Assembly: GCA_964016885.1 (NCBI GenBank)
Contig: OZ024743.1
Location: forward strand, 286,502,001 to 286,566,000
Length of the DNA stretch: 64,000 nucleotides
Origin: Eledone cirrhosa
Taxonomy: Eukaryota
Reading direction: 5' to 3'
The notes beneath the pieces were generated by a model. The model ran no database searches, was not told the origin of the DNA, and saw nothing but the letters and a program-made list of their open reading frames with translations. A program made the translations under genes and the position numbers. How positions within the stretch are numbered: position 1 is the first letter of the stretch; every line of letters begins with the position of its first letter. Positions 6,050 through 50,579 of the stretch are shown in pieces.

Positions 6050-6720
6050 CGCTGCACGATCCAATGGTTAAGAAGTTCACTCCACAATCATTAGGTCCTG
6101 TTGAAAACTGGCCAATCCACAGCGATGCGATACTGCACAGCAACCATTCCATTGTTGCTTGGTGATAGCTTGTGACCGAGATATACAAACTCCGTAACTT
6201 GAGCAATTTGCTGGTTGTAGATTGTGAGTTGGAGATTGACATTGTTTTTATTAGTTGCTATACATTTCATTTTGGAGATGTTGTGTAAGCCAATCTCTAG
6301 TGCATGTTTGGCCAGTATATTCAGAAAGTTTTGCAGATCAGTTCTAGAGTAACTCATGATAGCCAGATCGTCTGCATAGCTAAGATTTGATAGGATTTGA
6401 CCTCCTATTTGATAGCCAGAGGAGCATTCTTCTTCAGTTTGGTAGATAAGTGCAGCTATAACGATACAGGTATACAGAAAAGCTTTTGTGAAGTCAATGA
6501 AGGTGATATGCACAGGGTTGTTGAATTCTATTGATTTCTCAATGATTTGTTCAATAGCTAGAATCTGCTGAATGATACCTCTTCCAGGTTCATACGCAGC
6601 TTGTGTTTCAGGAAATGAGGCGTAAAGGCCTGACTTCACTCGTGCTGCAATGATACATGAAAAGCTTGTAAATATGACTCAGTAGGCTGATAGGACGATA
6701 ATTCCCACAATCAAGTCTGC
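6050..6720 (-). mobile_element. Internally deleted RTE-like reverse transcriptase fragment
   Basis: NYRPISLLSHIYKL, QAAYEPGRG, FIDFTKAF, LSYADDL, FVYLG motifs; the segment between KAF and YADD is much shorter than normal. Confidence 0.8.
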
Positions 6721-25702: not shown

Positions 25703-25920
25703 CCCTTTAGCATTTAAACCGGCCATATCCGGCCAGAACTCTCCCACCTCTTTCTGTTCAAACCAGCTGTAACCAGCTGCTCATACTGGCGTTAAGGTAT
25801 TGATCTCAAAATAAATAATATCAAAATCTCAGATTCAATATTAAGTGAGATATTTTGTAAGATAAAGACTTTTTCAAAAAAATACAATAGTATATATAAA
25901 GTAGTGCAAATGCTAAAGGG
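25703..25920. mobile_element. piggyBac-like MITE with TTAA target duplication
   Basis: ttaa|ccctttagcattt ... aaatgctaaaggg|ttaa; related copies at about 42178-42372 and 48669-48831. Confidence 0.9.
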
Positions 25921-27031
25921 TTAAGACTGTTTTCCATGAGAACTTCTTTATGATTTACTCCTTATAGCTAAATCCCTAGAAGAATAGAATTCAAAGAGTA
26001 TACTTAACAGAATGTTTTCTTTAGTGTAGAAATTGAACATAAAAGGTTTAATATTTGAGAAATGTTCATTACTTTTATTAGTATTTAACATGAGGTCAGC
26101 CCTGATCAAGCAGAGATGCATGATGCCAAGTACTCCATATCTTTTAAAATATTGGAGTATGATTCGAGGCAGATTTGGCTGTTATTTCCAGCAGGCTGAA
26201 CAACTATGTGGTGGCTCCATTGTTGGCTTATTTTGTTAATATTATTATCACAAGTCATGATACTTAAGTTATTATTTTGGCTTCTAAGTTACAATTATTT
26301 ATGCATAAAGTAATTTAGTAATAATTTGGTAATTCCATAGAAAGCCCATATATATTTGATTCACATAACAAATACTACTAGTACACATTCAATTACTCTC
26401 TAAAACAAATACATGTACAGCACAGCTGTTCACACCTTTGCAATATCATTTGTGAGAGGGAGAGAGAGGAGGTGGAGACAGACAGACAGGCAGTCTTAGA
26501 AAATAAAGACATAAATGAAACTTAAGATAACAGATAATGATGTATTTTTGGCACAGTTTGTGATGCACCCTGTCCTAGAATGTTAGCCTATGAAAAAATA
26601 GTCATTCCTTTTTGGTTTCTTATTTTTGGTACTTCCCCCTCCACCTCCCAATACTGTTTCTCTCTGCTACTTACCCCAATCAGGGTTACCTAGCCACCTA
26701 ATTCACCTTATTCTCATTGGTTTTAACTAGTATCACCCATCCCAAAGCCACCACTTCTTTGAGATTGGTAAGACATTTTGATTTGCATACACAAAACACA
26801 CAGAATGTAAAAGCTTATTATATAAACATGCAACACACACACATTTTTCTCCCTCTCAATTTCACACATACATATATATCTACACAGTTTTACCACATAA
26901 ATGCATATACATCTAAATACACATACAAATGTCTGTTCATATCTACTCCTCCTTCTATTCCAAAAGAGTATTTATATTTTTCATGAATACAGTATATGAA
27001 CATTAAAACTACTCTGACTGTTACCTTTCTT

Positions 27032-27100
27032 ATTGGCCAATCAAAATGATTTACCCCTGGGTAGATGAATGGGTATATAAACCCCCAGCCAAGCAGTTTT
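27032..27100 (+). promoter_or_regulatory. Arginine kinase distal promoter (P1a)
   Basis: ATTGGCCAAT double CCAAT (27032-27041), cctgggtagatgaatggg, TATATAAA (27074-27081), gcagtttt; ATG 82 nt downstream of the TATA start. Confidence 0.75.
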
Positions 27101-27155
27101 CTTTGCTGCATCTGACTTTCTTACTCCCAAACACTTGGAAAATTAAGATATAATT

Positions 27156-27306
27156 ATGGCTGATGCCGATGAACTTTTCAAGGCTCTTCAAGATGCCACG
27201 GAGTGTCATTCTTTATTGAAGAAACATCTCACTAAGGAGCGTTTCGAAAAGGTAAAGACGCTGAAGACCAAGTTTGGTGGGTCGATAGCAGATTGCATCC
27301 GCTCAG
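27156..27306 (+). CDS. AK: Arginine kinase alternative first exon 1a (MADADELF...ADCIRS-G)
   Basis: SLLKKHLT..KTKFGG.IADCIRSG phosphagen-kinase N-terminus; 151 nt; phase-1 donor G|gtaag compatible with exon 2. Confidence 0.92.
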
Positions 27307-28270
27307 GTAAGATCTATGTTATTGCTCAGTTTATAAATAATACCTAAATTAAAAATTGTAACTTTAATGAAATTTAGATTATGACAAAACTTTGGAAAAA
27401 GATTAAAAAATAAAAACTTAAAGACATTTCTGACAAAAAGTTGATTACAGTTTTGAAATATCTGAGTGGATTAACCATTTTATTTGAAAACCTTGATTAT
27501 GTCTAAAGTTTACAAACATACAAACCAAATATAGACAAGGACAAAACTTTAGAAACATCATAAGAAAATTAATTATTTCTATCTAAAACCAAGATTTATT
27601 ATTAAAGATCATAAATATCATGAGACATTTCAGTCAAAGAAAATATGTATTATAACTAAAATTTTAAGATATCGTAAAAATAGTTAACATAAAAAAATTA
27701 AGATTAAGAAGTATGATAAAAAATTTTAACAATTCCCTTTCATATTTCTATGATAAGATGTTGTGATATTCATGCTTTTCCTAATATCATTAACAACATA
27801 AATGAAATGAAATTAGATTGCATACAGGTAACACCAAGAACATATTGCCATGACAGTGCACTCAACAATATACTACTACTACTACAAATTCATATTATAA
27901 CAACCATTTCAAACTATTTTCCCCATTGCTCTCTCTTCATTCTACACTTTTAATTCATATGTATAGAAGTTTGTATTTGTAGTTAACCCTTGCTAGTGTG
28001 GAAAAATACTTTAAACAGCGATGATGCTGATGATGTATCTGTTGTGTGCATATGTTTATGATGACAATCTATTTGTAAAAATAGAACATATAATTTGTAT
28101 TACCAACAAGATTAAAAATATTTGATTTCTTGGTATGGAAACATAAGTTCAAACTATGGATCTTTCAGTCAGATGCACCATTTATTTCTTGCCTTAACCT
28201 GGTGGTTAATAAATATTGCACATTATAGCAAAAAGATATACAAGATAACCTTAAATAGCTTAACTGTTAG

Positions 28271-28519
28271 CAGGGGCAGTGGAAGCATTTCTGAATGAGG
28301 TGTGTGTGGGGAGGGGGGGGCAAATTTGGTCTATTTAGTTGTAGTGATTAGTTTAGCTGTTATCATCAAATATCAACCAAGATATAAAACACTTTGATAC
28401 GTGATAAACATATCATGTACATGAATTGTAGGGCATATACAAATAAATGTGTGTTTTGGTAGTTTGGGGAGAAAAATATAATTGGGGGATGCCCCCCACC
28501 CCCAGTTCCACCGCCCCTG
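28271..28519. mobile_element. MITE with 5-bp TSD (hAT5-like)
   Basis: TIRs caggggcagtggaa / ttccaccgcccctg; GTTAG at 28266-28270 and 28520-28524. Confidence 0.75.
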
Positions 28520-29029
28520 GTTAGTCATACAAGTAAAAAGGTTTAAGGTTGTTTTTAACCATAAAGTCTGTCAAACAAACCTATGAATAAAGGTGTTTAA
28601 GCCATGACTTTCACATCATTAAAAGAAAGAACATACAAACATAATGTATCTAGAACAATGTATCTAATTATTTTTAAAGTCAATACTGCACTGTGCCATT
28701 AAGTCAATGGCTTAAATTATGAGATGAAACTAATATGATCTTGTCAGGTTTTATCTTTAAAGCCAGTTGGCATGTTTTGATTTTATTAAACTTCTTCAAT
28801 AAAGCATAATCTGCCCAGTTAGGAAGACTTAGAAGAGATGATTTCTATATATAGAAACAAAAAGAATATAGTAACACTGAATATGAATATCTACAATATA
28901 GCATCAGGGGAAATAGCTCAGAGGAGCATTCTGCATACTAAATACATATACAGTAAGGCCTCACATATGTAATAATAGTAAATTGAGAAACTTTTATTGA
29001 CTGGGATTATACATTATACATACACACAC

Positions 29030-29312
29030 AAACAAACAAACACATACACATTTCACACATTCACAGACACACACATGCTTACACTCAGATTATCCATATA
29101 TACATCATACATGCACACACACACACACATACACACACAAATACATACACATTTCACACATTCACAGACACATACATGCTTACACTGAGATTATCCATAT
29201 ATACATCATACATGTACACACACACACACACACACAAACACATACACATTTCACACATTCACAGACACACACATGCTTACACTGAGATTATCCATATATA
29301 TATCATACATGT

Positions 29313-29320
<8 letters not shown>
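29030..29320. repeat. Three tandem ~100-bp CA-rich units
   Basis: catttcacacattcacagacac...atgcttacact(c/g)agattatccatatat...catacatg occurs three times. Confidence 0.9.
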
Positions 29321-29390
<70 letters not shown>

Positions 29391-29740
29391 TTATATATAT
29401 ATTTATATATATATTTATATATATATTTATATATATATATTATATATATATATTATATATATATATTATATATATATATTATATATATATATTATATATA
29501 TATATTATATATATATATTATATATATATATTATATATTATATATATATATTATATATATATATTATATATATATATTATATATATATATTATATATATA
29601 TATTATATATATATATTATATATATATATTATATATATATATTATATATATATATTATATATATATATTATATATATATATTATATATATATATATATTA
29701 TATATATATATTATATATATATATTATATATATATATATA
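29321..29740. repeat. ~420-bp pure A/T array, (TA)n with periodic TT/TTT interruptions
   Basis: Only A and T; roughly 11-12-nt higher-order unit. Confidence 0.95.
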
Positions 29741-30086
29741 TTATTCAAAATATTAACAAATGAAGATATTCACATAATCAAAATATATGCTTTATTATAT
29801 ATATTTTGAAGGTACTGTGTTGTTTTTTTTCCAGTACGTCCTCGTCAGATAAAATATGATTTGATATATGATATACCTCTACGGTCTTGGTATTTCAATT
29901 CCAGTATTGGCAGTGGATACTGGATTTGAAATATCAAGACCGTAGAGGTATATCATATATCAAATCATATTTTATCTGACGAGGACGTACTGGAAAAAAA
30001 ACAACACAGTACCTTCAAAATATATATAATAAAGCATATATTTTGATTATGTGAATATCTTCATTTGTTAATATTTTGAATAATAT
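29738..30086. mobile_element. Palindromic element A (170-bp arms, 9-nt loop) carrying inverted hammerhead-like motifs with G12>A
   Basis: Arms 29738-29907 and 29917-30086, 2 mismatches seen; plus-strand motif ttttat-CTGACGA(29976)-ggacgtactg..cagtaccttc-AAA-ATATATAT-A-ataaag. Confidence 0.8.
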
Positions 30087-30587
30087 TAAAACTCCAGGAA
30101 TATTTCTTTGTTGAGTGCTTTTAATCTATTGTAAAACTGTATTCATTGAGTAATCAATGAACCATATTAATCTTTGGTCATATATATATATATATACATA
30201 TATATATAATCGTTCATCGAGCAAACCTTGTTAAGGCAGACACCACACACACATATATACATATATATGAATATGTGTGTATATTTCATTATTATATTGT
30301 CCCAAACTCCCCTATGGTCGAGTTAACCTCGAGTGTATTAACTGTTTTTTCTAGCAAATACGTTATTCGCTCACTGTCCACCTTACTACCCTTCTGTGGA
30401 GGTCACAGAATGTGTGACGAAAGAGCTTTGACAAAATAACCATGATAATAAAGCTGAAGTGAAACTCAAATAGTGTATGTGTTGACTCAAATAGTGCATG
30501 TATTGACAACATGACTATCCCCAAATATAACAATAACTGTTTCAACACATGAATTCACATCAAGAATTTTGCAAAACAATTACATAC

Positions 30588-30627
<40 letters not shown>

Positions 30628-31037
30628 TCTGGTTACCCCCAACTGAACAGGATATTTATATATATATATGATCTTATGAAACATTGAGATGCTAGGTAAT
30701 TTTCTCAACCTGATTAGTTCTATTGTTACTTTGGTATGTATTGTGTGTTGGTTTCGCCTACCACAATGTTCGATTTGTCAAGCTATTTAAATGTATGTTA
30801 TTACTCTAAGGTCCTATCTTATTGAGTGCTTTGCTAACTCATCATTTCATATAAGTAGGCCGAATTTACTTGCAAACCGCCAGAGATTCGATTTTACTGA
30901 TTTCCAATTATATATAGATATATATATATATATACAGACCAGGATTTTTTTCATTCTGATGATTGAAAGCAAAATTGTTTGCTTTTAAGAAACCACTGGT
31001 AAATGGAATAATTGCCTTATGGTGTTTATTACATAAC

Positions 31038-31507
<470 letters not shown>

Positions 31508-32080
31508 ATATATATATGAATATATATATATATATATATATGAATATATATATATATATATATGAATATGTATATATATGAATATATATATATATATATA
31601 TATATGAATATATATATATATGAATATATATATATATATATATATATGAATATATATATATATAAGTGTGTGTGTGTGTGCGTGTGAGTGCGTACTTATG
31701 TCTGTGTGTATGTCTGTTTGTGAATGTGCAGCGCAACAGAATATATGAGTTAGTAGTGTAGGAAAAAGTGTATAGTTTTGTCCCTTTCTCCCCCTTTGTT
31801 TCCGTTTTCTTGTGTCAGTCGGTCAAATAATCATATTAATGCCATCAACATTATTACAAAATACCATTTTGCTTTTTAAAAAATCGATATTTGGCGTGCA
31901 TATAAATGCATGTAATTTGACTACGCATATTCTTCCATAAAGGGAAACCTGAATCCAAGTACACAACCATCTAAGGACGCACGCACTAGTAGATATATCA
32001 GCTTGTGAATGTTTGTACGCGTACGTTTATTTCTATGTGTGTTTTGTTTACCAGTTGTTTAAAAACATAAAGGTATCATT

Positions 32081-32168
<88 letters not shown>

Positions 32169-32338
32169 AAAAAGATGAGTACATGTACGTCAATACTCAT
32201 CTTTTTCCATTCCTCCGAGGGTTCTTAACCCCACTTATCAGGCTAAATAATTTCTTTAATTTCTTTAGTCAAAATACGGCGATAGCTTACATTTCTAATC
32301 ATTTCAAACCCACTCGCTGTTTCGAAAATATTCTTACT

Positions 32339-32384
<46 letters not shown>

Positions 32385-32469
32385 TGGTTACCGGCACACA
32401 CGCTTGAACACGCACATCAAATTTTCTAATGATAATCGGAGAGGAAGTCTTTCTACTGGGACACCTTTT

Positions 32470-33092
32470 CTTGTTGTTTTATCCAGGGTAACCCTGAAGC
32501 AGACTTATGACCAAAGGCGATCAGCCATGACCATCCCATATTTTGTTCAGACAGTGAATGTAGAACTAACACCAGTCTATGTATTTTAAAGAAATTATTG
32601 TTTAATATGAGGTAGATTAGATTGTTATTTAAAGCTGATTGAGTGACTGTATATAGGCATTTGTTCTTCAATGAGAGAGAGGAGTTTGCATTTTCAGGTA
32701 ATTTTATCGTTCCAAGTGTTAAAAAATTTTTTGGTTGTTCACTTTGCTTTTCATTTACTAGAGGTCGATTGATAAGCGAAGGACAAATATCATGCACACA
32801 CATATTATAGGAAGACTGACACACAAGAACGAAACATGAAAAAAAGAATAAAATAAACACGAGAAAAATAATCATGGGAAAACTTCAATAAATTATGGTT
32901 TCGTTTTGTCTGTGTGTAACTTTGATATAAATAACAATCAAATCTCCCTCATATTAAACAATACATTCTTTAAAATACATAGACTAGTGTTAGTTCTACA
33001 TTCACTGTCTGAACAAAATATTGGATGATCATGACTCGATCGCCTTTGGTCAAACGTCTGCCTCATTAGGGTTACCATGGACAAAACAACAT
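32470..33092. repeat. Inverted pair of ~140-bp repeat copies (32470-32611 and 32948-33092)
   Basis: atattttgttcagacagtgaatgtagaactaacac versus its exact reverse complement; flanking similarity on both sides. Confidence 0.85.
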
Positions 33093-33096
33093 CGCC

Positions 33097-33134
<38 letters not shown>

Positions 33135-33252
33135 TAAAATTATTGTGAGCAAGAAGCCAACAGTATGCAGAGGTTATATTTAATTTGTTAGGATTCAACA
33201 AGCTTAAAAAATTTTATAATTGATATAAAGCACTCGACAATTAGTGGAGTAA

Positions 33253-33586
33253 ATATACAATACAATATATTAACAAATGGAAACTATATTTATAAAACCA
33301 TATTTATTTTATTATACATATTTCAAGGTCCACCAAGGCAAATTCTGGTGCGCTTTCATCAGATAAAATACAATATAGATTTGTTTTATAAATAAATATT
33401 GACATACTCTGAAAAAAAGACAACCTTAACGGTATGTCAATATTTATTTATAAAACAAATCTGTATTGTATTTTATCTGATGAAAGCGCACCATAATTTG
33501 CCTTGGTGGCCCTTGAAATATGTATAATAAAATAAATATGGTTTTATAAATATAGTTTCCATTTGTTAATATATTGTATTGTATAT
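33253..33586. mobile_element. Palindromic element B (155-bp arms, 24-nt loop) carrying two inverted hammerhead motifs
   Basis: Arms 33253-33407 and 33432-33586, 3 mismatches seen; shares terminal atattaacaaatg and the tattttatCTGANGA context with element A. Confidence 0.85.
33469..33534 (+). ncRNA. Type I hammerhead ribozyme motif, intact core (mirror copy on - strand at about 33305-33370)
   Basis: tattttat-CTGATGA-aagcgcacca(taatttgcct)tggtggccctt-GAA-ATATGTAT-A|ataaaata; perfect 8-bp stem I; predicted cleavage after A33526. Confidence 0.8.
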
Positions 33587-33588
33587 AT

Positions 33589-34043
33589 CAGTGGCGAAGG
33601 GTAACCTGGAAAGCAGGGCATGCAGTCCAATCGCCATGGCGGAAAGTGGGATGTGCAACCTTACCCCCCCCCCCCAAAAAAAAAAATTCACTCTAAATGA
33701 CCCTACCAGTCAAAGCCGCATGTAGTGTTATCTAGTGTGTGTGTTATCTTTTTACGTGTCTACAATTTAGTAAGCAGCCAAAATTCTGCTTGCTTCAACC
33801 GACGCTGTTGTGTGTATGTGTGTATGTGTTATCTTTTTATGTGTCTACGATTTAGTAAGCAGCCAAAATTCTGCTTGCTTCAACCGACGCTGTTGTGTGT
33901 ATGTGTGTATGTGTTATCTTTTTATGTGTCTACGATTTAGTAAGCAGCCAAAATTCTGCTTGCTTCAACCGACGCAATTGATCAAGTCATGATTCTATAA
34001 CGCATGCACTGCATGCGTTGCCTGCATGCACCCTTCGCCCTTG
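33589..34043. mobile_element. hAT-like MITE in a TA tract, containing 85-bp tandem repeats
   Basis: TIRs cagtggcgaagggt / acccttcgcccttg; flanks gtatatat / atatatat; aaattctgct at 33781, 33866 and 33951. Confidence 0.8.
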
Positions 34044-34688
34044 ATATATATATATATAAAACAATGGGTCATGTATTGATCCTAGATAATTTTTGAACGT
34101 TTTCGACAGATCGTAGCGTTCGTGTATAATCGACGGACAAAAATGATAATATGGATTATGTTGTTATTGTAAACATGTCATGTTGAAATGTTAATTATTT
34201 TACTAGATGGACCGTAGAGTTTCTGATTTTATTTATCAAACGTGAATGGACAGGGAAATGAGAAGGAAAATAGATTTTTTTTTCCCCTGGACAACAACCC
34301 CGACTAAATACTGTGGTTTATATTAATTGTCATTAAATAATTGACTCTAAAATGGAAGCTGAATTTGTTTGAATAAAAACATTCAGTTTAGCAGACAACA
34401 GTTATATGCACTAAAGCGCATGCGTTAATTGATTGACTAGTTAAACAAAAATTGAGTCTTCGTTTTCTCATTCTTATCACTCCACAACCACCACCTCCAT
34501 TACGCCATCATTTAAACAAACACTACAGTTTTTAGTATATTCATCTGTGCGCGTGTGTGATGATTACATGTTAGTAAATAGTGTTCCGGCTCTTTATATA
34601 TATATATATACAGACATATTTTTCATTCGCACCGTTTCCTTTCGCTATATGTCTCTCCACCACTCCCCTACACACCTTTTGAACTCTC

Positions 34689-34720
34689 ACCTGAAGAAGG
34701 GCTTATGCCCGAAACGTCGT
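34689..34720 (+). ncRNA. Minimal hammerhead motif (Penelope-like)
   Basis: CTGAAGA-a-GGGC(ttat)GCCC-GAA-ACGT-C; only 2 bp of stem I; AATAAA about 40 nt downstream. Confidence 0.65.
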
Positions 34721-34898
34721 CCTCCACCTACCCCCCACTCTCCTGAGCGTGAATTTAATAAACATTTATCGTACTGCCTCTCTGTTCTGTCCCTGTTCAA
34801 TTTTTCATTATATATACAGACATACATACACACACGCAATACGACACAGTACATTGAAGAAATATATTAGTTTTACGCTTGATATAGTAGGAAAAGAG

Positions 34899-34934
34899 CC
34901 TTAACGTTTCGGACGCTAGTCCTTCATCAGAAAA
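34899..34934 (-). ncRNA. Minimal hammerhead motif (Penelope-like)
   Basis: Minus strand tttt-CTGATGA-a-GGAC(tagc)GTCC-GAA-ACGT-T-aagg. Confidence 0.7.
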
Positions 34935-35551
34935 TAGAATGATAAATTAAAGAAATGCTCTCGTGTCCCAAATAATAGGTCTGGCTGGAAGGAGGGGGGA
35001 GGGAATCGATAATTTTTCAAGATTGTATCCGTTGATTTAAAAAAACAAAACAGAATTAGTCGTTTAGTTTACATATTGAGACTCCAACCTATCCTATTTA
35101 TTTTAAAACGTATGGGATTTCTATTAATGTACTTTTTTGTCATATATAATCTTTTTAATGTCTAAAGAAAAATAATTGTCGCAGGAATGCTACCACTTAA
35201 AATAAAATTTCGCCGGAGATAGATTAGCAACATTTAATAAGCGGAGGGAGGTTGGAATACGAGCGGGGTGGTGGTGAAAAAATCTGAAAAATTAATAATT
35301 GTGTGGGGCGGGGGCTATTATTCGAAACTCGAGAGTAGAAAGATAAACGAGAGGCGACATTGGCAGAAACAAAGGAAATTAAAATCAGGAAGACCATAAA
35401 AGGTGACCAGTAATTAAGTTTCAAATCAGTTGCAGTGGAACTGTGCCAGAGATTAGGTGACACACACTGGAGTCTCTGATATATATTTACAGGACACCGA
35501 CTCGACTTGAATAAGATTATATATTGTCAACAACCTTAGAATTTCGACAGG

Positions 35552-35848
35552 CAGTGGTCACCAACCTTTCGGACCACTAAATTCCTAATTTTAAATCCCG
35601 TGGACCACTAATGTGAATTTCTTTAAACAAAGATAGATACATTTGTAAAATAATCGTCAGAGAACTTCCATTTTATTAATATGAAATGCACCTATTAGAA
35701 CATTGGGGGGGGGGGGGGGAATAGAATACATTTTAACTAAATAATATTTTTGTTATATTATTAATAAAACATAAAAATTGCAAATAATGTCCAAATTTTT
35801 CTGTGAACCACCAAAATTTTCTCTCGGACCACCGGTTGGCGACCGCGG
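35552..35848. mobile_element. hAT-like MITE
   Basis: Termini cagtggtcaccaacc / ggttggcgaccgcgg with subterminal ggaccac repeats; TSD not preserved. Confidence 0.65.
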
Positions 35849-35911
35849 CCTTAAGGCACCCATTAACTGACAATACATGTGTGAGCATGTATATGGATGT
35901 GAATAAGTGCA

Positions 35912-36387
35912 TGTATACACGAAAACATTCGATGCTCTCGGTACAATTTGTTCAACTTAGGTAGTAGACTGAATCTCTCGCCTCCTCCCTCATACAACAT
36001 TATCACCTGGCCGTTTAGGTGCCTTTAATGGCCTCCAATTAGTTGTGAAGTATAGAAGGCAGTTTATATCTAAACACAACTTCTCTTCCGCCCATTAGTC
36101 ATAGGGGCCCTAATAAAAATCATAGACACTGCTCTTCATCCTCTGACTTAGTTCAATTACACACGCGCGAGCCCCCCCCCCTCTCCACACACACACAAAT
36201 GTATATATATATATTATATATAAGCTTCAATAATCAAATCATATATTGTGTATAGAAATGACGTGTGTGTGTGTGAAAAAAAGCATATATTATGTATAGA
36301 AATGACTTTTTATATTACCTTTGTATATATTGTTTATTTGTTTTAAACACACACATATGTATGTGTGTGTGTGACACACACACACAC

Positions 36388-36448
<61 letters not shown>

Positions 36449-36925
36449 CACACACACACATACATATGTGTTAAAATCAATATATACAAATGTAATATAA
36501 AAAGTCATTTCTATACACAATATATGCTTTGATTATTGAAACTTAAATATAGGCTATTTTATTTACAAATTTTCATTAAAAAGAAAATTATATTTGAAAA
36601 CTGAAGGGAGACGATACACACGCACGCACATACCGGTATGTTTATAAATAAAACTATATATTTCAGTAGGTGTGTGTATACGGAGGACTTTGTTCGATGC
36701 TGAGTATTTGGAAGCTTTCCTATTTCTAGGTGGTAAACTGAATCTGTCACCCCTAAGTAACATTATCACCTGGCCCTTTGGGTATTTTTAGTGGTGTCTA
36801 CTTTGTTGTTGCTAGTATTCAGAGTAGATCATAAGTTTGAAGATAGCTGCTTCTCTTCTACTTGTCAGGCAGACACAGAGGCCCTGATAAAAGCCATAGG
36901 CTCAGCCCTTCATCCCTGATTTAGT

Positions 36926-36926
<1 letters not shown>
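35912..36926 (+). repeat. Diverged direct duplication (about 35912-36153 and 36676-36926) upstream of promoter P1b
   Basis: Collinear shared blocks ttcgatgct, actgaatct, aacattatcacctggcc, cttctcttc, ggccct.ataaaa, cttcatcc, ttagtt. Confidence 0.8.
36221..36545. repeat. Inverted duplication centred on (TA)n
   Basis: gtatagaaatgactttttatattac versus gtaatataaaaagtcatttctatac; ends ttcaataatcaaa / tttgattattgaa. Confidence 0.85.
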
Positions 36927-36967
<41 letters not shown>

Positions 36968-37086
36968 TATAACGTATTATATATAGTTACTAAAATCAAA
37001 CGGTTAAAAACATTGAAATTTTAACTAATGTTTCCGAGTCGATCACTGATAGAACATGCATGATGTATGCATGACTCAAGAATCAA

Positions 37087-37150
37087 CCAATCACAGTTAA
37101 GCCTGGTAGATGGGGTATAAAAGCTTGACTTTAGTGTATGCAGTTTACTG
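37087..37150 (+). promoter_or_regulatory. Arginine kinase proximal promoter (P1b)
   Basis: CCAATCA (37087), cctggtagatgggg, TATAAAA (37116-37122), initiator-like gcagttt about 26 nt after the TATA start. Confidence 0.75.
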
Positions 37151-37256
37151 TCGCACTTTCTTGCAGTTAGTCAATCCTAGCTGTAGTTGCGGGTCGTACA
37201 AATACAACCACTTTCTGCCTTATACCACTGCTTTCTTTTGCTCACAATCCAAGAAT

Positions 37257-37404
37257 ATGTCTGACCTTAAAGAATTGTGGGAACTTTTGCAAAAGGCCGA
37301 GAGTAAATCACTTTTGAAAAAACATTTGACACCAGCCAGGTATGAGAAACTGAAAAAACTGAAAACTAAATTCGGAGGCACTCTGGCAGATTGTATCCGT
37401 TCTG
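37257..37404 (+). CDS. AK: Arginine kinase alternative first exon 1b (MSDLKELW...ADCIRS-G)
   Basis: SLLKKHLT..KTKFGGTLADCIRSG; 148 nt; phase-1 donor G|gtaag. Confidence 0.92.
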
Positions 37405-39240
37405 GTAAGCTAAGAAAATGTTTAATAAATCAATATTATTTTAAATTTTACTTCATATAGACAAAACATCTACCGTTTATGAACAGGTTCCGAGAAATTG
37501 ATCTTTATATTACCCTCATATTCTTTTTAATAAAATATTGAAATAATGAGAAAATGTCTCTTCATAATTTTTTTTAAAGTTGAAATTAAATTAAACGTTA
37601 ATGAAATGTTCTTAGAGATTCTTGTATTATGAACATTTAAGGAATTCCACTTTATATTAAGAAAGGCTTTTGTCTTAGCAGCTTTTAAAAATTATAAACC
37701 GAAACGTTTAGCTCTTTCTCATTCATTGTTTCATTTACCTGATACATAAGATTAAATGGTGTGTATGTGATTTAAATAAAATATATATGAAACCACTTAC
37801 ATCAATGCTTCTCTCTTTTTATATTTAAAACTGAATTACTTCATTACATTATTAATCCTTAATATATGTAATATTCACTGGTATATCACGACTTCTAATT
37901 TTTAAAGAAATTATTTAATTTTCGTTCATGGTGTTATCATGTAATGGTCCGTCTTTCTGTTATTTCCTTAAGTATTTCGTCAATTTCAGCCACCAACGCT
38001 GCTCTGCTAGTTCGGAGCTGATAGAATTATGGTATATCCTGCTAGTAACGATAAATAACTAGATATATTATATATATATATATCTGCTGGCAAGCAAACA
38101 AACATTCTTCTATACACTACTTTCCTCACTAACAATATTATCTTAAATCTATCAGTTATCTGAATACATTTTAAATCGATGCAAATCTGTGTGCTGTTTT
38201 TCTAGCATTGTTGTAATGTTAGTAATTCTTAAATGACAAATAGTTCAAAGGTTTCTCATCAATTAATCTAAACAATAATTTGTTACGTTTTTTTTTTTTT
38301 TTTTTTTTTTTTTTCAATACTCTACTTGTCTCATCTCCTCTCTTTAATTAGCCGTATTAAATTGCTGTTCCTCTATTTTAATTCTCCATGCTAGTTTGAA
38401 TGATAACAAAATAACCTTCAGCCCTCCATCTATCAGTCGACATGTCTCATTTTTATCTTCCCTCAAGAGACTACTCGTATTCTTTTCATTTCTCGACATA
38501 TCACTGGATTTTTTTTTTCTTTTTCTTTCTAATAACTAAATTCGGTGAAACATTTGTTTTATATTTAATAAGAATTTTTTTCCCTATATCAAAATTATTA
38601 GATTGAAAACTAATTTTTATTTATTTACTGGCCTCACATTATTTATATATTTTTATTTTAGAAATAATATTCGATGAATAAAATATATGCAGCCAAAAAG
38701 GCTAATGCAATCTATAGTCTCTTTATTGTTTAACGTCTAGATTTATTTAACAGTAATATGACGATTAGGTAAAAGTTTACCTAATGGAGTTTTAGCAGGC
38801 AGCTAAAATTTAACTAGTGGAGGTTGTGACTCGTGCTTTTCCGAATGACATTAGTTATTTGGTTGGAGGTCAGCCCTGCTCGAGTAGACTTATAAAAAGT
38901 CATTCCAGCCATGACCATTCTATTTTCCTCTGTAGTGAACCCAATACCTCATTATTATAATGTGCCCTTTAAATTGGTGGGTGTGATTTAAAAGAAATTT
39001 GATTTATTTCTAGCATATCGTGTGACCATATAAAAGCTTCTTTAGGCGAATGACATGAGTGAAGTGAAATGGCGTCAAACCAGGAATTGAAACGGGTCGC
39101 TGAGTAGGGTCGCATTAATTTTACCAATTTCGAATATCATATTTGGGGCAGTTTTAGTGAATTATTAATCAGTCATATTTAATGAAAGTTCAAGATTTCA
39201 TATGTATGATTCAAAACAGATTCAAATGCCCCTGTAAAAA

Positions 39241-39271
<31 letters not shown>

Positions 39272-39893
39272 TAATGTATGCATAAAACTACCGGTCTTTA
39301 TATAAAATATAATTTAACATGTAAATGTTATCAACATTGGCTTCCACTCTTAGTTTCTTCAAATCTGTGTGTGTGTGTGTATATATATAATTTCATTTCG
39401 AAGTGACAACCATTGGACCAGTGGTGTTTTATTCTGCGGAGAAATCTTTTCTAAAACACGACTGAAAGCTTTTACGTAGGCATTAGACTTCAGTTTCTTT
39501 GCTCTTTAAATAAATGTTTAAAACATTATAATCTAAAAACAAATAACGTAAAACACTCAACATAAGCGTTACCTGAGATACGGAAATGATGAGTGCAGCG
39601 ACCATAATTTGTTCAGCAATAATTTTCTCCAAAATCCAAAGATGTTTTATATAATAAATTCTGGCTGCACTGTTAATCATTCTTGCAACTCATTGTCTGT
39701 ACAATGTTGAAGTATTCTGGCAAAGGATTAAGAAACAAATTAAATTAAGAAAAAAAAAGATTCTTATTGTGTGAAATACTATCTAGAATACAAAATAAAA
39801 TTATAAAGAGTCAGTGAATTAAGGTGAACGGGAAAAGTTACAACTTTGGGTGGAAAAAAAAGGTTGGCGAAAATTTGTTCACTCTTTAAACTG

Positions 39894-40531
39894 GATAATC
39901 TTGCCGAATACGGGCGTTTGGTGGTTATATATGGTTTATTTTGAATCACTGAAATGAGTTTCGTTTTGAATAATTCTAATTTGATTGAACTTTTTTTTTT
40001 TCGTAATACGACCACCAAGTGTGACAATCTGCAATACCTCACACTTTGGTTAACTGAACACTTTCAGGCGAGGCTCAGGCGCTGAAATAACCAGGCACCT
40101 TCACGGGCATCACCTGACATCTCAGTGAAGACAAGAGCTTCGCTGTCAGTGACCCAACTCCAACGAACCTCTCGAACGCCAGAAGCTGGAAAAAATAATT
40201 ATTCCGAATTTTGTTCCGTTCGGCAGCGGAAGCAATGACCCCTACATTCACCGCGGCGTCCTAGATGGGACACCTACTTCTCACCCAAGGACAAAGAGTA
40301 AGACCGTCTGGTCTCTCCCCATCACTTCTGGATAAACCAGCCGGCTCCAGAACTGCGGGGTTTTGTTTTCCCTTGCAAATATACTTCAAGCTAATTTCAT
40401 TTTAAAAGCATGTGTATTCCAAAAAAAAAGCAAGTCAGGCTAAAACGAAATTTATTGGTTTTAGTAATTCAAGAAAATCATTTGTTTTTAACACCCCCAC
40501 CCCAAAAGCGCACATATTCGGCAAGATTACC
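39894..40531. mobile_element. Probable MITE/non-autonomous DNA transposon
   Basis: taatcttgccgaatacgggcgttt versus aaagcgcacatattcggcaagatta as inverted termini; GC-richer interior; no clear TSD. Confidence 0.55.
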
Positions 40532-42475
40532 AAACCTATAAATAATTAAAACAATATTTTGAATTGATTATTACCTCACAGTACATGACTTGGCATTTTT
40601 TCCTGGATTTAAAGTTATCCTATTTATTTAAATACCAGTTTATTCATTACTTTCACTTTTCCATAACGTGCATTATATGGTTTAGAAACAAAATGAGTCC
40701 GTTTGAGAGTATTTAATTGAAGTAATGATCTCTATTCATATTGTATAGTCTTTTTTTTTTGTTACGTGTCAATTGCTTGGAGATAAAACATTCATTCTTT
40801 TCCTTATTCGCGGTTCAGTCATAGCTTCGAAGCCATCTGGTTTTCTAAGCTATCAAAAATCTATATTTGTCATTAAAAAATAAAATTGTTCCTGTCCTGT
40901 AGTGTAACTTAATCACCTACCACCTGCAGAGAATAATAACCAAGCAAAATAATGAAGGTAGTGTGTATTAAAATGCTATTTGAAAATTTTAAGGCTGAAA
41001 TGTTATAAATGCAATCAATAGATGTGTGTACACTTTAAAAACAAGCAAAATATATTTACATGCATCTAAGAAATTTTGAGATCATTTCTATGAAATTTTA
41101 AATTCTATGGCTTAAATCTTTTAAGGACAAAAATTCCATTCCACATGTTAACATATTCAAACAATTTTGAGTGGAAAAACGTTACGATATTAAACATTTC
41201 ACTCGCATTACTGTCATTGTTTTGCTCTAGTAATCTATTTTTATTTATTATAGATTGGGAGATTATTTATTTATAAATTCTTCATTGTAAATCAAGGTAG
41301 CCACTCTGTAGAACATGGATTACTCAATTCGTGTAGTTTAAAAACAAATTCTGTTGACTTTTTCTTTCTTGATATCGATTCGTAAGTACTCGTATCTCAT
41401 GCAAGTTAGTGGTTTACTGATGGATATTGAATTGAATTTCGTTGTATGAACATGGCATTTAAAAAATTATTTAGAAGTCTTTTTTTCACATTTGTACCCA
41501 CTTCCCTCCTTTATATGAGAAGAAAAAAATCAGCAAATTGCTCTTATTTAAAATGAACAAGTACAACTGCCATAGAAAAGATAATATTCAAATTGCATAA
41601 TAGATGTGATGTGCAAAGCTTAGGATAGGTAGTAAAACAAAACTATCTTAAAACTCTAATCTTGCAGTTGCCTAGTTTTTAACATTTATACAATTACAAT
41701 TTGTATACATAACATATCTTAGAAGAAACACTGCTCTCCAGGCCTTTGTGTGTGTGACTATATTGTCAAATACATGTTTCCTGGTTTAAGAGAGTAGGGT
41801 GTAATTTGAGTAAAATTGAGATGAAATATCTAATAGATCTCGCAACTGTGCAAAGGCCTATCTTAGTAGTTAGTTCCAAGTAAATGTAACTGTCGCTTTC
41901 TCCCTCTTCAACTTTGGTAGACTTAAGATAAAGGGTGTTTCGGTTGTAACCATCCAACCTTACCAGTAACTATATAGTCGAATATATACTTCAAGATGAG
42001 TAAGGCGATGTTTGACGGGCAATTTCAAGCCCAAGTTGCTTTTCTTAATATTATATTTGTAGTGTTTGAGCAAGAACAATATAATTTATTTTATACATTT
42101 GTGGCAAAAGTGTACTTTCAAACTTATGACAAGTAATATATATATATATATATATATATATAATTCCTTCAAAAGTTATTTAAACTGGCCATATCTGGCA
42201 AGAATTCTCACACCTCTCTCTTCAAACTGGTTGTAGCCAGCCACTTATACTGATGTTATGGTATTGTTCTCAAAATAAATATCAAAATCTCATAGATTCG
42301 ATATTATGTGAGGTAAAACTTTTTACTGTGAAAATATAATAGTATATATAGAGTAATGTAAATGCTAAAAGTTTAAGGAGCAGTGTGAGATGAGTTACTT
42401 AGGATGCAAATTCTATTTGACCTCTTGATAATTTTTTATAAACTACTTTATAAATTCGTTTTTTCTTTCTTCCAG

Positions 42476-42735
42476 GTTGCAAAAACCCTGACAGTGGTGT
42501 AGGAATCTATGCTTCTGATCCAGATGCATACACCGTATTTGCTGAAGTCCTTGATGCTGTCGTCATGGATTATCATAAAATTGATAAAGTCAGCCACCCA
42601 ACACCAAACTTTGGTGATGTTACCAACTTGAACATTGGTGATCTTGATCCATCTGGTGATCTTATTGTATCTACACGTGTCCGTGTGGGTAGGAGTCACG
42701 ACAGCTTTGGCTTCCCTCCTGTCCTCACTAAAGAC
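42476..42735 (+). CDS. AK: Arginine kinase exon 2
   Basis: Acceptor tttcttccag|; CKNPDSGVGIYASDPDAY...STRVRVGRS...VLTKD; donor |gtatg; 260 nt. Confidence 0.97.
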
Positions 42736-43099
42736 GTATGTTGCTTTCTTGCTTTAATAACATTTCGTAGCCTATTTACTTTATATCTTAATATATGACT
42801 CGATGCTAATTGAAGTAATTTTCAGTATATTCAAAATTTTTAATAACAAAAGCGCAATCTAATAGTTGACTGTTTAAATGACTTAGCCTTATTGGGATTT
42901 GTCTTGGTTAAAAGAAATATATGGTATGTGGGTGCATAGAATCCACAGCATTGTTGATTAATTAAATAAAATTTTCTAAGATTTAGCTTGAACAAAGTAA
43001 ACAATATATTAATATTTATTAAGGTTCACAGATATTGCTTTCTGTTATTCTTGAAATTGTCGATTTCATTAACTATTAAGATGATTTTATTTTTAACAG

Positions 43100-43248
43100 G
43101 ATCGTGTTAAAATGGAAAAAGTTTCCGTTGATGCTTTGAAATCCCTTGAAGGTGAATTGGCTGGTACCTATCATCCCCTCACCAACATGGCTCCTGATGT
43201 CCAGAAGCAATTGACAGATGATCATTTTCTGTTTAACGACTCTGACAG
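43100..43248 (+). CDS. AK: Arginine kinase exon 3
   Basis: ttttaacag|; DRVKMEK...LTDDHFLFNDSD-R; |gttag; 149 nt. Confidence 0.97.
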
Positions 43249-44940
43249 GTTAGTTAAGATTGCTCTATTTTCTGTTTTGAGATATTATCAGTTTTTGTTA
43301 CTTGAATATGATTGTGCAAAAATTACTGCTGCTGTGTCTCTTATTTCTGTCATGTAACTCAAATATCTAACATTACTTACTTAAAATTCCCTAATGGTGA
43401 AAGATTAATATATTTGTGAACAATCATTGGTTCATTGTATTTTTTATGGCAAGTGACAAATAGATTGAATATCCAACTACTTAGTTTCAAAGCAAACAAC
43501 CATGCAGTCATGTTTGTGCTCAATTGATGAAAAGGAATTTTCACTGAAAAATATTTTTTATAGACAGCTTTTTTTTTTTTATCTTGATTATACATAGTGT
43601 AGGCTAAACTATATAGATTCTGTAGTGCAATTGAAGTAAATCAGTTAATGTACCAGTAATTTATTTGAACTGGCTGCCATATATGCAAATTATTCTATCA
43701 AATTGACTTAATTCCATAGGAACGGTGCGTTTATTAGCAGTAACTCAATTAAAAAGGGTAGTTACTGATAAAAGTTCATCGTTGAAATTAGTCTAGGTGA
43801 TTTTTTCTTTTTCTTTTTCTTTTTCTTTTTCTTTTTCTTTTTCTTTTTCTTTTTTTTCTTTTTTTTTTTTGATTTTTCTCTCTCCACTCTTCAGTCCATC
43901 AATATATATATTCTGAGGTATTTCTGTTTGTCTATACATACACAACCTACTGCTAATAGTGTTGGCTAAAATCTATGCACTACAGTAGCATAATTGAAAG
44001 ATTACGGGTTTTAAATTTTATAACTTTTTGTAACATTTTTAGAATTAATGAATACTGTAGTTTTGTTACAAGTAACTTAATATCATTGTTGGCAAGAGCA
44101 GGAGTGGAATGATAAGCCATTGCATCTTAGTGGTGTATAAACCAATCACTTTGACAAAGTGAAAGTCAGATCCAGTCCAATCCGTAAGGTGGTTGGGCTG
44201 GTGACAATAAAAAGCACCCAGTCCACACTGTATTGTGGTTGGTGTTAGGAAAGGCATCCAACTGTATAAACCAAACCAAAATGCAGATCCATATGACTTG
44301 TCTCATAACATGACAACCCATCTAACCCTTGCAAGCATGGAACATGGATGTTAAATGATGAGATGATCAATGTGTTAGCAGGCTTTTACAGTCTTTCTAA
44401 ACTTGCTGCTACTTATAGGTCAGTTACAGATGAATGCAGCTTTGAGTGATTGCTAAGTGTGCTTCCAGGAACTGATATATTGAAAGGGAGGGAAATATTT
44501 ACTAATTAGATTTGGACAAATTCATTATTCCATATGTTGTATTTTCAATGGAATGTACAATTGTCTTTTGGCAAAGATTTTCTCTCTGGAGGTGGCATAA
44601 GGTGGGTGAGCATATCATTTTACATCTGCTTTCATGCTAACACAGGCCAGAGGGTCTTTACAGTCAATTCTTTTTCAATATAGTTACTGCCCTCCCAGTT
44701 GGGTTGGAGAACCATGTCTTGCTTGTAATAAAATATCTATTTTATTAAAGCTCTAACACGTCTTTAGAAAGAGCATTTGAATTCTGTTGAGCAATGTTGA
44801 ATTTAATAAGAAATACTGACAACTATTTCTAAATGTTTTCTATAGAATACTACTTTTTTATTGAAATGTATTTTATATATTGCTTCAACCTATGAATTTT
44901 TAGCCAATACTATACAGCTTATATGTTTATTACTTTTCAG

Positions 44941-45106
44941 ATTCTTGAAGGCAGCTAGTGGTTATGATGACTGGCCTACTGGCAGAGGCATCTATTTCAG
45001 CGAGAACAAGACTTTCTTGTGTTGGGTCAATGAGGAAGATCATCTTAGGTTGATTTCCATGCAGAAAGGTGGTAATTTGGGTGAGGTCTATGCCAGATTG
45101 GTCAAT
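44941..45106 (+). CDS. AK: Arginine kinase exon 4
   Basis: cttttcag|; [16 protein letters not shown]...[17 protein letters not shown]; |gtaag; 166 nt. Confidence 0.98.
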
Positions 45107-46328: not shown

Positions 46329-46494
46329 ATACCATCTTTAATAAAGGGAAGGACAAGTATTTAACAGTGTACAGGACAGTGTAATGTAACTGATTATGAT
46401 ATATATATATATATATATATATATCATAATCAGTTACATTACACTGTCCTGTACACTGTTAAATACTTGTCCTTCCCTTTATTAAAGATGGTAT
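46329..46494. repeat. Perfect ~166-bp palindrome centred on (AT)n (AK intron 4)
   Basis: ataccatctttaataaaggg...ctgattatg(at)n cataatcag...ccctttattaaagatggtat. Confidence 0.95.
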
Positions 46495-46850: not shown

Positions 46851-47031
46851 GCTATCCAGCAGATGGAAAAGAAACTGAAGTTTGCCAAGAAGGATAACAT
46901 GGGTTACTTGACATTCTGCCCAAGCAACTTGGGTACTACCATGAGAGCTAGTGTGCATATTAAGATCCCTAAGGTTGCTAAGAGACCAGATTTCAAAGCT
47001 ATCTGTGACGAACACAACCTTCAAGCCAGAG
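46851..47031 (+). CDS. AK: Arginine kinase exon 5
   Basis: tttttccag|; [19 protein letters not shown] active-site motif; G|gtaaa; 181 nt. Confidence 0.98.
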
Positions 47032-47137: not shown

Positions 47138-47280
47138 GTATCCATGGTGAACATACTGAAAGTGTTGGTGGAGTCTATGATATCTCTAATAAACGCCGTA
47201 TGGGACTCACAGAATTTGAGGCTGTGAATGAAATGATGAGAGGTGTCAATGAGATCATCCGGCTGGAAAAGGCTGCCTAG
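47138..47280 (+). CDS. AK: Arginine kinase exon 6 (terminal)
   Basis: attttag|; (G)[25 protein letters not shown]...KAA*; total CDS 1050 nt with exon 1a or 1047 nt with exon 1b. Confidence 0.98.
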
Positions 47281-47303
47281 ATCATTTTTTTTTTCTATTG
47301 TAA

Positions 47304-47420
47304 AATAAAAAAAAATGTATCCGAGATCGGATAGCAAAATAAGTCTACAATGTTAGATTGTTTGAAAATCTCAGATACATTTAGACTGTAAAAGGCTTCT
47401 GCCATCCAGGCGAGAATAAA
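47304..47420 (+). terminator. Candidate AK polyadenylation signals
   Basis: AATAAA at 47304-47309 and 47415-47420, the second followed by a T-rich tract. Confidence 0.6.
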
Positions 47421-48668: not shown

Positions 48669-48831
48669 CTCTTTAGCATTCAAACTTGCCATAACTGGCC
48701 ACTCATACTGATGTTAAAGTATTGTTTTCAAAATAAATATCAAAATCTCAGATTCAATATTATGCAAGATAAAAAAAGCCTTTACTGTGAAAATACAATA
48801 GTAAATATAGAGTAATGTAAATGCTAAAGGG
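48669..48831. mobile_element. piggyBac-like MITE (family of 25703-25920)
   Basis: ttaa|ctctttagcatt ... aatgctaaaggg|ttaa. Confidence 0.85.
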
Positions 48832-50579
48832 TTAATGTAGTGTAACTGCCATTATATTTTCTGATTTATTTTGAAAAATATAAAAAAGTTTCAGATCTAA
48901 ACTAAAAATATTGACTTGTCCTATCCAACCTACAAGATTCACATATTAATGTCCCAAACAGGGTCACTTAATTTTGGGGGTGCAAAGTGTTGCGACTCAT
49001 TCTCTGCTTTCACCCTTGTAAAGCTGGGCACCACTGCCTACAGAGGAGAGGAAGATAATTAACTTGACTCACCACTTACTAGTCGTATTAGCTGCTGTTG
49101 AGACCTTAAGTGTCCTTGGTCCCTGCACTGCTGATTTCCTTTGTAAAAGTGGAATGGGTGTTGCTGGCTAATCTCCACAGCAATACTTTAACCATTTTAT
49201 CTGTAGGGTACACGGTGGAAACTGCTCTGACTGGCGAGTAGTCTGTCGTCCCCTGTCCCTCTTTTCTTTCATTGCTTAATTCGTTTTTTTTATTTTTTTT
49301 ATTTTACTATTGGGAGTTATAAATACAACTAAATGCGTGCACTTAACTGAGATGTAAGCTTACTGCAGAAGGGAGATAATTTCATTGTTTAAGCGCTACT
49401 TTGAAACCTGCAACAATACTAAAGTGTGATTTAATTGCCTTGCATTAAACAGACAGTTTCTTTTTGCCCGACTCATTTTTAAAAAAATATACTCTAGGAT
49501 GGTCAAGCTGCCAACAAAAACGGGCATCATTTTTCTTATCTCTAATGAGTTTTATTTCAAGCTCTATCATTTCTGGAGTATGCTCATAAAAAAAAAAAAG
49601 CCTTGACTTGGTGTCTGCAATACTTACTCTGAACTATACCCAACTTCCAAGTTTTATGTTCATTAGGTCACCTTAACCGTCAAAGCTAATGCCATTCTGG
49701 AGCAACACTGATCTGAAATCAAAATATAATCTGGAATTCATGGAATCTGATGATCTGCATCAGCAACAATTAGTTCATAAGTTCAATTGGGAAGAATCTA
49801 ATATTTCAAGCTCTTACTCTTTGTATAATGAAAGTAGTGTTGGTGTTTTCACTGCACTCTATGCAATTCCTATCTCTCATTTTATTTCTAGCCATCTGCT
49901 TGTATGTCCACTTGATATTTTCTTTGTAGTGTTAGATTAATAGAATCAATGGTAGACAAAATATAGTAAATGTAGCTGTTCTCTTTCTATCCTTTTCAGT
50001 CTATGTAGACAAAAAGAAGGTTGATACTCTGTGGTAGTTGGGTAAGGGGTGTGAAACTAATTTACTATGGTGGATCAAACAATGTGAGTACCCAGTAGTG
50101 GGCTAGCTAACCTAACTGTCTAGTATAGGTCAATATTTGAGATGAATTTTTGAACCTATAATTAGGAAATCAGGTGCTGTCTAGGCCCAAGATTTTTACT
50201 TTTTCAAAAGGCTACTTGTGTAATGTTTGATCCTCTAATTGTAGGTTTAAAAGTTTCAGCCTGTACAAGAAATTGTACTACAGTATGAGCAATTTGTGAT
50301 TGATCACATACAAGACATTTAGGGAGTATACTTTTACCAATGTGAATAAAAACTAGTAATGTTACGTAGATAATTTAATTAAAATTTCAAAATAATAGAA
50401 TGAATAGCAATTTTGAAAACAGTTAACATAAAATCTATTTTATGATTGTATTGTATTTTCTGTCATACAAATGCTATAATCTGATAGAATCATTCTCAAA
50501 TGCTTTTATTCTTGCCAGAAGTCAGTGTTCTCTGCCAATGGTATTTTCTTTATCTCTTACACACGTGATATTTTTTCAT

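Follow-up and report, generated by a model that had tools for sequence, protein, structure and literature searches.

One arginine kinase gene with two tandem first exons, each behind its own promoter-like sequence, in the octopod Eledone cirrhosa

Introduction

In molluscs, ATP is buffered mainly by arginine kinase, which is also known as a shellfish allergen (Oct f 2) and, in Littorina, as a classic example of an allozyme under selection. The present work concerns an arginine kinase gene in 64,000 nucleotides of Eledone cirrhosa (GenBank assembly GCA_964016885.1, contig OZ024743.1, positions 286,502,001 to 286,566,000 of the forward strand), a stretch that is called the window throughout and numbered from its first letter. 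Variable first exons spliced onto a constant region are known from UGT1A and the clustered protocadherins. Among phosphagen kinases, a 1990 study of chicken B-creatine kinase reportedly described a dimeric enzyme whose alternative exons are internal and share one promoter, and Ellington et al. are said to have traced in 2004 the alpha and beta chains of glycocyamine kinase to tandem exon duplication and alternative splicing.

That chicken B-creatine kinase has two N-termini through alternative splicing is stated by a title in the reference list of PMC10357257 (PMID 2365692), and the alpha and beta chains of polychaete glycocyamine kinase appear in the names of PDB entries 3l2d and 3l2e and in the title of Suzuki et al. 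1999, listed in PMC6429109. Arginine kinases of about 40 kDa are generally monomers, according to the accessible text of PMC11492440. In Drosophila, a short added N-terminal exon of ArgK1 targets mitochondria, as described in the available part of PMC13215054. In Littorina, Le Moan et al. (2022) found exons 1, 3 and 4 in multiple copies, which the accessible text reads as duplication or assembly error (PMC9923470). The terms 'exon', 'splic' and 'promoter' do not occur in the available text of the 2024 review PMC11492440, and the accessible portions of PMC8070484 and PMC3080659 hold nothing further on the molluscan arrangement. No description of alternative first exons in molluscan arginine kinase was found in the open literature, much of the field being published in subscription journals and supplements lying outside the search (Figure S2 of PMC9923470 may bear on the matter). 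The form with separate promoters and several modules across molluscs appears to be undescribed, and its principle has precedent in other phosphagen kinases. An earlier note on this locus, made from the letters alone, had set its proposal of a duplicated promoter-plus-first-exon module against the usual diversification of phosphagen kinases by whole-gene or whole-domain duplication, a framing that misses the alternative N-termini of chicken B-creatine kinase.

Results

The arginine kinase gene consists of two probable alternative first exons (1a and 1b) and a body formed by exons 2-6, as follows.

27037-27155, forward strand: promoter-like region and 5' untranslated region (UTR) of 1a, with CCAAT at 27037 and TATA at 27074
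27156-27306, forward strand: first coding exon 1a, 50 codons plus G, residues 1-50, with an ATG start and a G/gtaag donor
37087-37256, forward strand: promoter-like region and 5' UTR of 1b, with CCAAT at 37087 and TATA at 37116
37257-37404, forward strand: first coding exon 1b, 49 codons plus G, residues 1-49, with an ATG start and a G/gtaag donor
42476-42735, forward strand: shared exon 2, with the common acceptor and the guanidino-specificity loop DSGVGIY at residues 56-62
43100-43248, forward strand: shared exon 3
44941-45106, forward strand: shared exon 4, with the NEEDH motif
46851-47031, forward strand: shared exon 5, with the CPSNLGT and RASVH motifs
47138-47420, forward strand: shared exon 6 and 3' UTR, coding part 47138-47280, stop at 47280, AATAAA at 47304 and 47415

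Both 1a and 1b join exon 2 in frame at 42476, all introns are GT-AG, and the predicted products of 349 (1a) and 348 (1b) amino acids are free of internal stops. Both exons bring their own start codon and a donor of equal phase that leads to one shared acceptor, which is the arrangement expected of alternative first exons. The paralogous exons described in the earlier note, with their positions, ATG, donor and in-frame joins, were borne out by the sequence, and so was the absence of copies of exons 2-6 between them. No second copy of exons 2-6 was found anywhere in the 64-kb window, either by tblastn with the body or with a profile of 140 relatives' bodies; these searches returned the five known exons alone, and the next-best E values were 0.35 (tblastn) and 2.5 (profile). 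The view of two promoter-plus-first-exon modules on one shared body is supported by this anatomy and by the contigs and protein records of relatives given below. We conclude with good confidence that the locus is one arginine kinase gene whose first coding exon occurs in two tandem copies, each with its own promoter-like sequence, and that the choice of promoter likely picks the N-terminus.

Octopus arginine kinases share about 90% identity with the body; its closest named relatives are arginine kinases, and in the body tree it falls inside the octopod clade and outside the Octopus-Amphioctopus group. The PF02807 cut-off of 25.7 bits was passed by 1a (40.6) and 1b (43.8), and the relatives P0004 and P0051, with bodies about 90% identical, carry both PF02807 at the N-terminal and PF00217 at the C-terminal side. 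The specificity loop and the catalytic motifs (DSGVGIY, NEEDH and CPSNLGT), which we take to be those of arginine kinases, are all present and all encoded by shared exons. The specificity-loop residues of arginine kinases are discussed in the accessible text of PMC11492440. In the structural model of P0004 (mean predicted local distance difference test, pLDDT, 87.4), exon 1 covers helices 4-13, 20-24, 27-33 and most of 44-53; these are outer helices, and the loop and catalytic motifs lie outside the swapped part. Both isoforms likely phosphorylate arginine, and likely have the same substrate because all catalytic motifs are in the shared exons. A third annotated isoform of O. vulgaris (CAI9720217, P0047; 269 aa) begins within exon 2 and is without most of the N-terminal domain.

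The two promoter-like regions have an element in common, TAGATG..GGGTATA, a pattern drawn post hoc that occurs twice in the whole window. The local alignment score of the proximal regions was equalled by 1 of 500 shuffles, and that of the 500-nt upstream regions by 9 of 300. In a related octopod, the 207 letters ahead of exon 2 on a 1a-type contig would correspond to a start near 27097 if there are no indels, and the 1b contig extends back to about 37154, although contig ends prove no start site in either case. An AG stands shortly before the ATG of both 1a and 1b. Because 1a joined to the AG ahead of 1b's ATG runs into a stop within three codons, inclusion of both exons would be unproductive, and transcripts from the upstream promoter are expected to drop 1b along with the intron.

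An in-frame ATG is also present at 37110, and its frame is open for 49 codons (37110-37256) up to the start of 1b. If 1b were translated from there, the product would have a 49-residue acid-free leader that might target mitochondria like the first exon of Drosophila ArgK1, for which the available part of PMC13215054 gives the precedent; the window keeps this frame open, as do two Octopus gene models, and a Sepia model has a 53-residue leader. We regard such a leader as quite improbable, given that its ATG sits upstream of the TATA box and that the leaders of octopods and decapodiforms are dissimilar save over the stretches that translate the CCAAT and TATA boxes. One decapodiform-like leader sequence has no Met, the Sepia record P0181 (349 aa) begins at MSD, and the relative's 1b contig stops at about 37154 going back, which is a weak argument as contigs show no starts. 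The Octopus and Sepia gene models of 397-402 aa probably over-extend 1b through the promoter and TATA box. At the other end of 1b, the intron start (37405-37431) is conserved in the octopod-like read-through P0013, in which nine codons are alike, and this suggests constraint near the donor.

Exons 1a and 1b are identical at 32 of 49 aligned residues, and the codons differ at 21 of those 32. In the last 32 codons the proportion of synonymous differences (pS) is 1.05, which is saturated, and that of nonsynonymous differences (pN) is 0.16. Both exons are under purifying selection; the earlier note had held both to be under selection. That note had also placed the divergence of the proteins in the first ~17 residues; it is strong there (codons 2-17, pS 0.54 and pN 0.49) but not confined to them, as 7 of the last 32 residues differ. 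Its contrast between an acidic, Cys-bearing 1a and a more basic 1b is kept across coleoids, but the charge gap is modest: the net charge of the exon is +2 versus +6, the isoelectric point (pI) of the whole protein 6.32 versus 7.17, and the coleoid mean net charge +3.4 (1a-type) versus +5.5 (1b-type). Among coleoid sequences, position 17 is Cys in 17 of 18 1a-type and Ser in 10 of 10 1b-type exons, position 8 is F/Y in 18 of 18 versus W in 10 of 10, and position 28 is E/D in 18 of 18 versus A in 10 of 10; these counts include the window's own exons, and the classes were set by likeness, which makes the sorting partly circular outside same-species pairs. Positions 4, 8, 17 and 28 are class-specific, being fixed or nearly so across octopods and decapodiforms, and coleoid exon-1 residues sort by class rather than by species.

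The main alternative to a meaningful swap is that only the second promoter matters and that the coding exon was copied because the start codon lies inside it, the two proteins being alike in function. The location of all catalytic motifs in shared exons, the closeness of pN to pS in codons 2-17 and the small charge difference between the isoforms would fit this explanation. The class-specific residues at 4, 8, 17 and 28, kept across octopods and decapodiforms, speak against it, and so does the effect of N-terminal surface residues in creatine kinase, where M-line binding is set by N-terminal lysines (available part of PMC2175123) and thermal stability by residue 36 (available part of PMC4754747). 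We consider it possible, though doubtful. That 1b is a non-functional leftover is barely credible: coleoid 1b-type records are fewer than 1a-type records (10 versus 18, the window's included), but 1b is the more conserved copy, with 29 of 32 core residues identical to Sepia 1b as compared to 25 of 32 for 1a, its ATG, donor and promoter are kept, and it occurs in full-length records.

Protein searches and cluster listings gave 222 proteins, whose records were split at the exon 1/2 boundary. Records with identical or near-identical bodies and differing exon 1 were found in 12 of 18 named mollusc species, a figure that leaves out the Elysia/Plakobranchus cross-species pairs and one decapodiform cluster and is not a frequency. 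Two exon-1 types were found in Octopus vulgaris, O. bimaculoides, Sepia pharaonis, Bradybaena, Arion, Batillaria, Babylonia and Gigantopelta, and three in Aplysia, Biomphalaria, Littorina saxatilis and Magallana gigas. The bodies are identical at 299/299 residues in each of O. vulgaris, O. bimaculoides and Sepia pharaonis, at 303/303 in Aplysia, 302/302 in Biomphalaria and 301/301 in Magallana gigas, and at 293-299/301 between the three types of Littorina. Bradybaena, Arion, Batillaria, Babylonia and Gigantopelta likewise have identical bodies behind their differing first exons. Contigs of 1.3-1.4 kb also carry full 1a-type and 1b-type proteins whose bodies agree throughout (P0182/P0189, 299/299). 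Public gene models already annotate these isoforms, as X1-X3 in Aplysia, Biomphalaria and Magallana and as CAI9720215/6 in Octopus vulgaris. Sepia pharaonis AKS26488 (P0181) is 1b-type, and the records of Sepiella, Sepioteuthis, O. vulgaris (BAA95609) and Amphioctopus are 1a-type. The accessible text of the Sepia cloning paper describes one cDNA obtained by rapid amplification of cDNA ends (RACE) and an enzyme purified from muscle (PMC5427814; P0181 is not confirmed as its cDNA). In 28 of the 222 proteins, gastropod as well as bivalve (for example P0008, P0038, P0054, P0061, P0062, P0068, P0069, P0100 and P0191), the N-terminus opens with MYxx(A)Y, and a variable linker leads on to the kinase. 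This start is absent from the window and is a candidate conserved targeting or docking peptide.

Spliced contigs of three sequencing runs of a related octopod (X1-X3), guessed to be RNA, were compared over 36980-43790. Among runs recorded as RNA none contains E. cirrhosa sequence, none was listed for the 1a stretch, and X1-X3 had a share of only 0.04; this has no bearing on expression. X1 and X3 each have one spliced contig that leads from a 1a-type end into exons 2, 3 and 4, with 207 or 171 extra letters ahead of exon 2 that read F-G-G-T-I-A-D-C. By hand count these letters match 1a's end at 23/30 and 1b's at 21/30, and they were assigned to the 1a type because of the Ile of GGTIADC, the CAG at the joint and their failure to align on exon 1b, which lies within the compared stretch. 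In X2, a 260-nt contig spans 1b and its UTR, with no cover in the next two depth bins of the intron; beyond 37406 another 7 letters remain, which do not match the intron. Read as exon 2, these letters would bring the 1b contig to 42484; the main contig begins at 42486. Up to 18 loose 1a-type letters are carried by two short X2 contigs. This geometry is expected from 31-letter graph words around a variant at 42485, so both exon types are likely joined to exon 2 in X2, the 1b join being deduced from the contig geometry. The exon 2-3 joint is present in all three RNA-like runs, and in all three the loose ends after 43248 agree with the beginning of exon 4. X1 and X3 are without cover on 1b and X2 has cover, but contigs drop rare forms, so this is no sign of tissue specificity. 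In the loose ends before 42473, the final letters ahead of the joint differ from the expected Arg codon in all three runs, as a real change or a display artefact.

The 1a-1b intron contains a 450-bp AT array and long near-perfect palindromes, its assembly was not checked with reads, and molluscs possess several arginine kinase genes; one of the exons could on these grounds come from a separate gene through collapse or a false join during assembly. However, DNA contigs of run X4 track 36980-43790 in long pieces with 0-1 differences and short gaps (X4 may be the assembly source), and three named coleoid species carry both exon types on bodies that are identical, two of these having them on a single contig. 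Such an error is very improbable.

Judged from the exon-1 trees, the exon pair is older than the octopod-decapodiform split. A coleoid 1a clade and a coleoid 1b clade are compatible with the data (p-value of the approximately unbiased test, p-AU, 0.35 and 0.52). A coleoid-only origin was not rejected (p-AU 0.15), and the trees cannot tell one origin of the cephalopod, gastropod and bivalve classes from several. An octopod-only duplication, with all octopod exons in one clade, was also tried and rejected (p-AU 0.008).

A further match to exon 1 was found ahead of 1a.

26782-26913 (core 26800-26847), forward strand: probable decayed exon-1 copy, about 310 bp ahead of 1a's ATG

It scored 16.9 bits (E 0.0012) with an exon-1 profile of 164 peptides, a score reached by 0 of 40 locally shuffled windows (best shuffle 13.4). 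It matches 1a at 10 of 16 residues and 27 of 48 bases; a stop in the same frame lies just before it, an ATG is lacking, and the expected position holds no donor. A Pfam search of the region gave no match. It is probably a decayed first-exon module. The earlier note had mentioned neither this copy nor the sharing of the layout by other molluscs. A donor-like GTAAGA lies about 30 bases ahead of its core.

The remaining features are repeats. Long near-perfect palindromes lie in introns at 29738-30086, 33253-33586, 36280-36530 and 46329-46494, several of them at AT microsatellites, and are either hairpin elements or artefacts of assembly. Three copies of a short repeat of very high copy number are present (25712-25925, 42178-42377 and 48679-48835), one just ahead of the shared acceptor, and DNA depth is about a million at 42224-42451. 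Upstream of the gene there are reverse-transcriptase fragments (PF00078, E 3e-9 at 6094-6678 on the reverse strand, and a weak match at 213-1046), together with a 40-bp tandem array and a dispersed repeat about 185 bp long.

213-1251; 6094-6678 (reverse strand); 3176-3745; 12098-12504: upstream repeat features (reverse-transcriptase fragments, ~185 bp repeat, 40-bp array)

Discussion

Our results suggest a gene in which promoter choice would decide which N-terminus of about 50 residues is joined to one shared catalytic body. The swap would give separate control of expression and a different outer surface of the N-terminal domain, which may act through docking, stability or a redox-sensitive Cys17. 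The isoforms may be specific to tissues or stages, for instance muscle versus non-muscle, as the earlier note had proposed; the X1-X3 runs are unlabelled for tissue and their contigs give no levels. Because the catalytic motifs are all in shared exons, it likely alters expression and surface, not substrate. The effect would be like that of two gene copies, without duplication of the catalytic body.

Several points weigh against this interpretation. The 1b-exon 2 joint is absent among the joints listed for the X1-X3 contigs and was deduced, the junction evidence comes from relatives and none from E. cirrhosa itself, and the RNA nature of X1-X3, whose contigs are nonetheless spliced, is only guessed. 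Gene models make up most of the cross-species pairs, the relatives were compared through records and not genomic DNA, and the clusters were partly chosen by 'isoform' labels, for which reason 12 of 18 cannot be taken as a frequency. Six of the 18 species are without such a pair in the records examined: the record pairs of Haliotis rubra, H. asinina, Argopecten and Mizuhopecten share exon 1, and the Liolophura and Lottia records are separate genes. The exon-1 trees rest on only about 50 columns and give no star to the coleoid 1a and 1b groups, and a clade of the window's 1a and 1b, 30 log units worse, is not formally rejected (p-AU 0.07).

If promoter choice makes the isoforms, gene-level expression studies and allergen epitope maps may mix two or three proteins, and enzyme studies that pair one cloned cDNA with muscle-purified enzyme may mix isoforms. 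The locus also offers a natural swap experiment on the outer N-terminal helices of a phosphagen kinase with an identical catalytic core. We tentatively suggest, as a possibility rather than an expectation, an ancient molluscan cassette that predates the split of cephalopods, snails and bivalves, in which two to three promoter-plus-N-terminus modules serve one core and direct it to various docking sites or cell types; one class, with the MYxxY motif, may carry a targeting signal, and octopods would keep a decayed third module. If this is true, a one-gene cassette fills the role that vertebrates divide between a muscle and a brain creatine kinase gene.

The known systems resemble this locus in different respects. 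UGT1A and the protocadherins likewise have tandem promoter-plus-exon modules on shared exons, but here there are only two to three modules, and the variable exon ends before the substrate-specificity loop. In chicken B-creatine kinase, too, one phosphagen kinase gene gives two proteins that differ N-terminally; there the alternative exons are reportedly internal and under one promoter, whereas here they are first exons, each with CCAAT and TATA boxes, and up to three in molluscs. Glycocyamine kinase is an invertebrate phosphagen kinase said to have a duplicated N-terminal exon on a shared body, but it has another substrate, belongs to another lineage and reportedly forms a heterodimer. As compared to the chicken or glycocyamine type, the separate promoter-like regions argue against one shared promoter, though both exons could follow a shared upstream non-coding exon. 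The Littorina copies in the accessible text of Le Moan et al. may or may not equal diverged first exons. Drosophila ArgK1 gives arginine kinase isoforms with different N-termini from one gene, with consequences for localisation in Drosophila. A non-homologous targeting peptide of that type was not found here, where the sole candidate leader starts upstream of the TATA box. Whereas Drosophila ArgK1 adds a non-homologous targeting exon, the E. cirrhosa gene exchanges a homologous part of the fold.

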